Shown one piece after another: positions 61,510-61,703 of a stretch of 64,000 bases of DNA; position 1 is the first letter of the stretch; each line of letters opens with the position of its first letter. The DNA lies in the NCBI RefSeq assembly GCF_003334305.1, contig NZ_QOWS01000005.1; one strand, given 5' to 3'. This DNA is from Escherichia coli. GTDB taxonomy: Bacteria; Pseudomonadota; Gammaproteobacteria; Enterobacterales; Enterobacteriaceae. The notes below the pieces were generated by a model. The model was not told where the DNA came from. It ran no database searches and saw nothing but the letters and a program-made list of their open reading frames with translations. The translations under genes were made by a program, and so were the position numbers.

Positions 61510-61574
61510 GACTATTATCGCGCAATTTGCTCACATTGATTAAATTAAACCACACACTATAAGATATAAACCTC

Positions 61575-61592
61575 TGCCTACAGCTGTAAGAA
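61575..61592 (+). promoter_or_regulatory. EvgA-box-like inverted repeat upstream of safA-ydeO
   Basis: TGCCTACA-GC-TGTAAGAA matches the recalled EvgA consensus at 17 of 18 positions; about 110 bp upstream of the safA ATG. Confidence 0.55.
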
Positions 61593-61703
61593 ACTCCGCT
61601 CAGTACTGAAGTGCCAGTCCTATTTCCTCTTTTCTCCAGCCTGTTATATTAAGCATACTGATTAACGATTTTTAACGTTATCCGCTAAATAAACATATTT
61701 GAA

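Follow-up and report, generated by a model that had tools for sequence, protein, structure and literature searches.

Two operons of Escherichia coli, ydeP and safA-ydeO, are each preceded by a box for the regulator EvgA, and the locus raises the question of whether the likeness of the two promoters ends with the binding motif or belongs to a larger, duplicated unit. The DNA that was analysed (hereafter the window) is a single stretch of 64,000 nucleotides from E. coli, and carries the ydeQ-ydeP-safA-ydeO segment on its + strand. Of 5,426 complete E. coli genomes, 5,386 match the interval 58840-61710 and annotate it as ydeQ, ydeP and safA, and the open reading frames (ORFs) of the window agree with the identities of ydeP, safA and ydeO. 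The coding sequences, and the hairpin that splits the ydeP and safA transcription units, are as follows:

59177..61456, + strand: ydeP coding sequence, 759 aa, ATG at 59177 (ORF and annotation of the matching genomes)
61470..61500, + strand: intrinsic terminator-like hairpin, 3' of ydeP
61704..61901, + strand: safA coding sequence, 65 aa (ORF and annotation of the matching genomes)
61976..62737, + strand: ydeO coding sequence, 253 aa (ORF)

No Rfam family was matched in a search of 58700-62100 at E <= 1. In strain LA3 (NZ_CP141840.1), an IS903B-family insertion was found inside the equivalent of 58840-61710, which is otherwise 100% identical.

Direct activation or induction of the ydeP and safA-ydeO operons by EvgA has been reported (PMC4283999, PMC9496106, PMC11210196), and passages of PMC3720670 and PMC4283999 credit the 18-bp inverted repeat TTCYTACA-N2-TGTARGAA to Masuda & Church 2003. 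When the 64-kb window was scanned for sites with three or fewer mismatches to TTCYTACA-NN-TGTARGAA, only the ydeP and safA boxes were recovered. They are separated by 2659 bp, lie 5' of the operons that the literature reports as EvgA-induced, and were found with the letters and at the positions given in the original prediction:

58916..58933, + strand: EvgA box of the ydeP promoter, ATCCTACACCTGTAAGAA, one mismatch to the consensus, centred at about -74.5
61575..61592, + strand: EvgA box of the safA-ydeO promoter, TGCCTACAGCTGTAAGAA, one mismatch to the consensus

In the 2003 work of Masuda and Church, EvgA reportedly binds this box, and mutation of the box is said to lower induction. The safA and ydeP EvgA boxes, the binding of EvgA and the role in acid resistance are established parts of a system that is already characterised, and the analysis concerns the DNA around the boxes.

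The original prediction was that the safA site is part of a duplicated module of about 35 bp, with about 22 of 27 positions identical to the ydeP region from TGTAAGAA onward. Pairwise alignment of the two promoters confirmed the similarity and extended it. The 22 matches were recovered, but over a length of 28 positions, because this is the distance from TGTAAGAA to GAAG: 8/8 positions are identical in TGTAAGAA and 14/20 past the box. For the latter segment, identical positions averaged 5.6 over 20,000 dinucleotide shuffles and never exceeded 13. The module length proposed at the outset proved too short, as the ungapped likeness runs for approximately 105-110 bp. It reaches ~59020 in the ydeP promoter and ~61679 in the safA promoter (38/67 positions identical past the end of the originally described segment), or ~59024 and ~61684 when a single 1-nt gap is allowed. 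The compared segments are the following (offsets with a plus sign are counted from the 3' end of the box):

58934..58953, + strand: ydeP linker, +1..+20, AAATCCGCGCACAATTGAAG, at about -65..-46 of the promoter, 14/20 positions identical to safA
61593..61612, + strand: safA linker, +1..+20, AACTCCGCTCAGTACTGAAG, the originally described extension, which holds the palindrome TCAGTACTGA
58916..59024, + strand: whole ydeP promoter cassette copy, delimited by the alignment and by a strain-conserved block with the same limits
61575..61684, + strand: whole safA promoter cassette copy, delimited by the alignment and by strain conservation

Counted from the start of the box, 67/105 positions are identical without a gap, and the identity of the flanks is 19/80 upstream of the box and 25/80 downstream of the module. 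The similarity accordingly begins abruptly at the box, from where it continues past the extended -10 and the start site into ~25 nt of leader. Past the box, 52/91 positions are identical (z = 6.7), a value that none of 20,000 dinucleotide shuffles attained. Local alignment of the downstream regions with the box excluded gave a match of 88 nt (z = 6.8; 0/400 shuffles) with one 1-nt gap, TTAAC-TTATC versus TTAACGTTATC. Among 200,000 random 91-nt pairs of real sequence from the window, the best reached 43/91. When AT-rich window pairs were considered, comparable ungapped identity was seen solely in two paralogous coding segments for GGDEF domains (12285-12432 versus 31075-31222), the only other such pair in the window.

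As a direct control, the frc, yegR and emrK/evgA promoters and the two yfdX boxes (loci L001 and L002) were aligned on the box, with register and orientation kept as for ydeP and safA. All pairs other than ydeP and safA shared 1-11/20 and 14-31/67 positions over the two intervals for which ydeP and safA share 14/20 and 38/67. The likeness of ydeP and safA therefore goes beyond that expected of two EvgA boxes, both against shuffled sequences and against other EvgA promoters. The proposal that the two sites share a duplicated or co-evolved module, rather than a mere motif, is supported by the box-free alignment, by the sharp 5' edge and by the absence of the similarity from other EvgA promoters; its unit has to be redrawn as a whole promoter of ~110 bp, part of whose likeness is an architecture common to the regulon.

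Further copies of the extended module had been suggested upstream of genes such as emrKY, gadE and yfdX, and the search returned none there: the module was not found 5' of emrK, evgA, yfdX, frc or yegR, and the gadE region contains no box with three or fewer mismatches. In a metagenome scan with TGTAAGAAANTCCGCNCA, the 90 matches listed comprised 23 of the ydeP type, 19 of the safA type, one safA variant with a 1-nt deletion, and 47 chance matches without a left half-site. No third genomic context for the module occurred among the matches listed, and those with a full box were all of the ydeP or the safA type. A contig (L005) of a 'Candidatus Nanosynbacter' MAG encodes a YdeP 100% identical to that of the window, and both EvgA-box modules are present on it; the contig is presumably a contaminant of the bin from E. 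coli.

The anatomy of the two copies was read in relation to the ydeP leader, the end of which has been reported at -178 (PMC11210196). With the ATG at 59177, this places the start at ~58999. From this start and the corresponding predicted one at ~61657/61658, both boxes are centred near -74.5, and the originally described extension occupies -65..-46. The promoter elements are:

58959..58965, + strand: ydeP TCTTATT element, +26..+32, resembling an EvgA left half-site and located just 5' of a weak -35
61618..61624, + strand: safA TCCTATT element, +26..+32, in the register seen in ydeP, yegR, emrK, frc and yfdX
58983..58991, + strand: ydeP extended -10, TGtTAATTT, read from the sequence and fitting a start at 58999
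61642..61650, + strand: safA extended -10, TGtTATATT, in exact register with ydeP and kept in all strains examined
58999, + strand: presumed ydeP transcription start, from the published leader end (178-nt leader)
61657..61658, + strand: predicted safA-ydeO transcription start, from the extended -10 and the ydeP register

The TGn-extended -10 sits 49 bp past the box in both promoters, with the ydeP start alone tied to a published leader, and the TG and TA..T of this element are retained in all 9 strains compared (see below). By inspection, -10-like hexamers are present at ~+52 to +60 in the emrK, frc, yfdX and yegR promoters. A consensus scan returned TTGAAG-16-TATATT, in ydeP, as the sole consensus-type promoter, from which the box would be centred at ~-57; this candidate is not favoured because it has no counterpart in safA and misfits the published 178-nt leader.

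Several features of the leaders and spacers were recorded in addition. The first 18 nt of the ydeP leader from the presumed start, ATGAGAGATGATGCTTAA (58999-59016), are invariant in nine strains and could constitute a leaderless 5-codon ORF (MRDDA*). Further downstream, the same leader contains a conserved hairpin, AGAGTAGTCCCCTACTCT (59067-59084). In a natural variant of the safA promoter (L077:2340-2360), the pyrimidine tract that separates TCCTATT from the -10 is shortened by 1 nt, which alters the spacing from box to -10.

Conservation among strains was assessed in nine sources of diverse origin: besides the window, these were K-12, the divergent lineage L006 and six genomes across the identity range. 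In both promoters, the mean pairwise difference was 0.19-0.20 upstream, 0.04-0.07 in the box and 0.05 at +1..+20, and climbed again past ~+110, so that the module is three to four times less variable among strains than its flanks. In sets of 22 and 26 distinct alleles, the proportion of variable columns was 75-77% upstream, 70% after +88 and 11-44% inside the module, the positions from the right half-box through +10 being biased because the metagenome alleles were selected by a pattern over them. The limits of the strain-conserved block coincide with those of the block shared by the paralogues. In all 18 sequences, 54/105 positions are invariant (..CCTAC...TGTAAGAAA.T.CGC.CA....TGAAG....AGTC.TATTT...), and 13 fixed differences separate the ydeP and safA paralogues. 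The identity of the paralogues is 67.2 of 105 within genomes and 67.3 between genomes; since the two values are equal, the duplication is older than the sampled E. coli lineages, and concerted evolution or gene conversion was rejected. The alignments and strain comparisons show two copies that are colinear, homologous and, as judged from their pattern of variation, under purifying selection. Divergence among the strains is shallow, and the local history of mutation and recombination could explain part of the contrast in conservation.

Outgroups were sought with YdeP and with a diverged YdeO. In species-representative genomes, the YdeP scan gave one more Escherichia lineage (L006), and homologues elsewhere, among them Edwardsiella and Yersinia, where the upstream DNA is unrelated. 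The YdeP proteins of Edwardsiella (L007, L008, L010) are 84-85% identical to the E. coli protein; neither the upstream DNA nor the gene neighbourhood is related, a hint that the gene was transferred horizontally and its promoter was not. Four E. coli genomes, from baboon, guinea fowl and human isolates, contain a second, diverged ydeO (78% aa identity; L062:4613-5822). It is preceded by a 3' remnant of safA, has neither an EvgA box nor ydeP, and adjoins a different fimbrial operon and IS66. The search with diverged YdeO also gave a deletion variant; like the second ydeO, it was uninformative for polarising the duplication. Neither search found an outgroup that reveals which copy is the older, or the ancestral single-copy state, and around the module no duplication junctions, flanking repeats or flanking similarity were visible.

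To place the pair within the regulon, six EvgA promoters (ydeP, safA, yegR, emrK, frc and yfdX) were aligned without gaps from the box. Over +1..+58, five columns are invariant (C+9, A+10, T+26, C+27 and T+31) compared with 0.21 expected, and eleven columns are conserved in at least five of the six promoters compared with 2.45 expected. No invariant column was found upstream of the box in the six promoters. When the two most similar pairs were each cut to one member, 7 invariant columns were counted versus ~1.8 expected (P ~0.001). The likeness of ydeP and safA is in part this regulon-wide architecture, common to yegR, emrK, frc and yfdX.

A half-site position weight matrix (PWM) built from the boxes only was summed over the six promoters, and its best forward offsets were +25 and +3 (P ~0.02 and ~0.04, respectively, against the best offset in shuffles), the scores of individual promoters being weak. 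Counted from the real left half-site, and in its orientation, these offsets fall 42 and 20 bp downstream. The secondary half-sites score 1.6-2.9 bits versus ~11 for the real ones, and no right halves are recognisable at them. Palindromes are found nearby: CAATTG in ydeP is exactly 22 bp, and TCAGTACTGA in safA 21 bp, from the box centre.

Particular pairs of promoters share additional sequence. The safA and emrK promoters (emrK: L001:3390-3551, - strand) have in common CACTATAAG at -20..-12 relative to the box (61555-61563 in safA) and AGTCCT at +24..+29, with overall identities of 19/40 upstream and 31/67 downstream of the box. The motif ATTTAAACACTA(T)GAGAG is common to the ydeP promoter (58988-59006) and the yegR promoter (L002:3290-3451, - strand), where it spans the -10 and start at nearly equal distance from the box. 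After the box, the frc promoter (L001:13507) and the proximal yfdX box (L001:14501, - strand) have an in-register AAATG.C.CG...CTCTCTGATT. In yfdX, another full box precedes the proximal one by 38 bp.

We consider it probable that P_ydeP and P_safA are paralogous EvgA-dependent promoter cassettes of ~110 bp, arranged as direct repeats, with a linker that makes weak bridging contacts. One ancestral cassette would have been copied to yield direct repeats 2659 bp apart and, because the downstream genes ydeP and safA are unrelated, only the promoter would have been copied. In each cassette, an 18-bp high-affinity inverted repeat at ~-74.5 would be joined by a conserved ~50-bp linker to a poor -35 and a TGn-extended -10, followed by the start and a leader segment of ~25 nt. 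The linker probably carries weak secondary contacts that link RNA polymerase to the EvgA~P dimer at the distal box: a box at -74.5 is too distal for contact at the -35 and, together with the poor -35 and the conservation of the linker, this makes such contacts probable. Candidates for them are the degenerate EvgA half-sites ~20 and 42 bp 3' of the left half-site and/or docking of the alpha-CTD.

A different occupant of the linker was considered: PhoP, YdeO, GadE, a nucleoid protein such as H-NS, or an alpha-CTD contact of the UP type on its own. Conservation of the linker among strains fits this explanation too, and repression of safA by PhoP and YdeO (bioRxiv 10.64898/2026.05.06.723403) as well as indirect repression of ydeP by YdeO (PMC11210196) have been reported. 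However, scans of both promoter regions for the PhoP box, the YdeO hexamer and the gad box gave weak PhoP-like matches in the leaders only, and the shared linker contains no PhoP box (three or fewer mismatches), YdeO hexamer or gad box. Seven YdeO sites were reported by ChIP-chip, with ydeP and safA unmentioned (PMC4222967). In addition, the GC-rich TCCGCGCA resembles neither an UP element nor an H-NS site, and the conserved positions extend across the promoters of the whole EvgA regulon. On balance, another occupant of the linker appears rather unlikely. The PhoP-box-like matches of the safA leader (61659-61706, 3 mismatches, past the predicted start) may be linked to the reported PhoP repression of safA.

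It is also unlikely that the linker is a neutral relic, in which duplicated promoters function by the box and the -10 alone and the additional matches are ancestry that has yet to decay. The similarity does enter the transcribed leader without evident shared function, and the 13 fixed differences between the paralogues imply free divergence at many positions. Nevertheless, strain variation at +1..+20 is as low as in the box, and approximately four times lower than in the DNA just upstream, and several linker positions are invariant across six otherwise dissimilar EvgA promoters. Moreover, with a duplication that predates the sampled lineages and no gene conversion, unconstrained sites had time to diverge.

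Convergence without common descent, driven by a shared geometry of EvgA and RNA polymerase, draws on the fixed architecture of the regulon (box, CA at +9/+10, TCYxATT at +26..+32 and a -10 at ~+53). This would be a quite improbable origin for the ydeP/safA likeness, as the four other promoters with the same architecture share only ~5-11 of these positions compared with 52/91 for the pair. The elements TCCGC, TGAAG, TGTTA and TTAAC.TTATC are furthermore specific to the pair and occur at identical offsets, with no indel over ~105 bp and past the start site. Chance resemblance of two AT-rich intergenic regions (GC 0.30 and 0.40) anchored on a common motif was refuted by the shuffles, the random pairs and the other box-anchored promoters described above, and its probability is negligible.

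If P_ydeP and P_safA are indeed copies of one ancestral promoter with a functional linker, the consequences are those of a refinement. For this regulon, the EvgA box of safA and what it does are already textbook knowledge, so nothing fundamental changes. Models of EvgA sites that use the 18-bp motif only miss ~50 bp of constrained promoter DNA, which matters for the prediction of EvgA targets and for the design of P_ydeP and P_safA reporters. These reporters are in wide use as read-outs of EvgS/EvgA. The distal box with its conserved linker provides a concrete, testable hypothesis for activation by EvgA from ~-74, and the ydeP/safA pair would represent a clean case of regulon growth, with a whole promoter copied ahead of an unrelated gene.

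Compared with the known EvgA-activated promoters of K-12, the ydeP and safA boxes themselves show no difference. What goes beyond the known description is the ~110-bp homology of ydeP and safA and the positions 3' of the box that are conserved throughout the regulon, for neither of which a description was found in the accessible EvgA literature; both are refinements of the known system.

EvgS/EvgA were named for their similarity to BvgS/BvgA, and EvgA belongs to the NarL family. Like the Bordetella BvgA promoters Pfha and Pptx, which are governed by a related response-regulator system, the ydeP and safA promoters combine a strong distal inverted repeat with a poor -35. The primary BvgA site of Pfha lies at ~-88.5, compared with ~-74.5 for the EvgA box. 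At Pfha, BvgA binds as head-to-head dimers 22 bp apart, with the strong site furthest upstream and the last one adjoining the -35, and the weak BvgA sites are difficult to spot in the sequence (PMC7250471). The EvgA box is likewise the furthest-upstream site, as nothing 5' of it is conserved in all six promoters. In BvgA promoters, intervening weak sites approximately two helical turns apart reach the -35, whereas the secondary EvgA sites are weak candidates without right halves. The BvgA spacing of 22 bp compares with 20 and 22 bp for the EvgA candidates, and a third full EvgA dimer would overlap the -35. A wider reading, offered tentatively, is that the EvgA promoters may form a family of cassettes (strong box at ~-74, degenerate same-orientation half-sites ~20/42 bp downstream, extended -10) that would be activated by BvgA-like cooperative bridging, with ydeP/safA as the most recent duplication and safA/emrK, ydeP/yegR and frc/yfdX as older ones.

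As a duplication, the ydeP/safA pair differs from duplicated bacterial promoters in that no junctions or flanking repeats are visible and the downstream genes are unrelated. It resembles them in that the copies are colinear, the likeness extends beyond the motifs into transcribed DNA, and the neighbouring operons are co-regulated.
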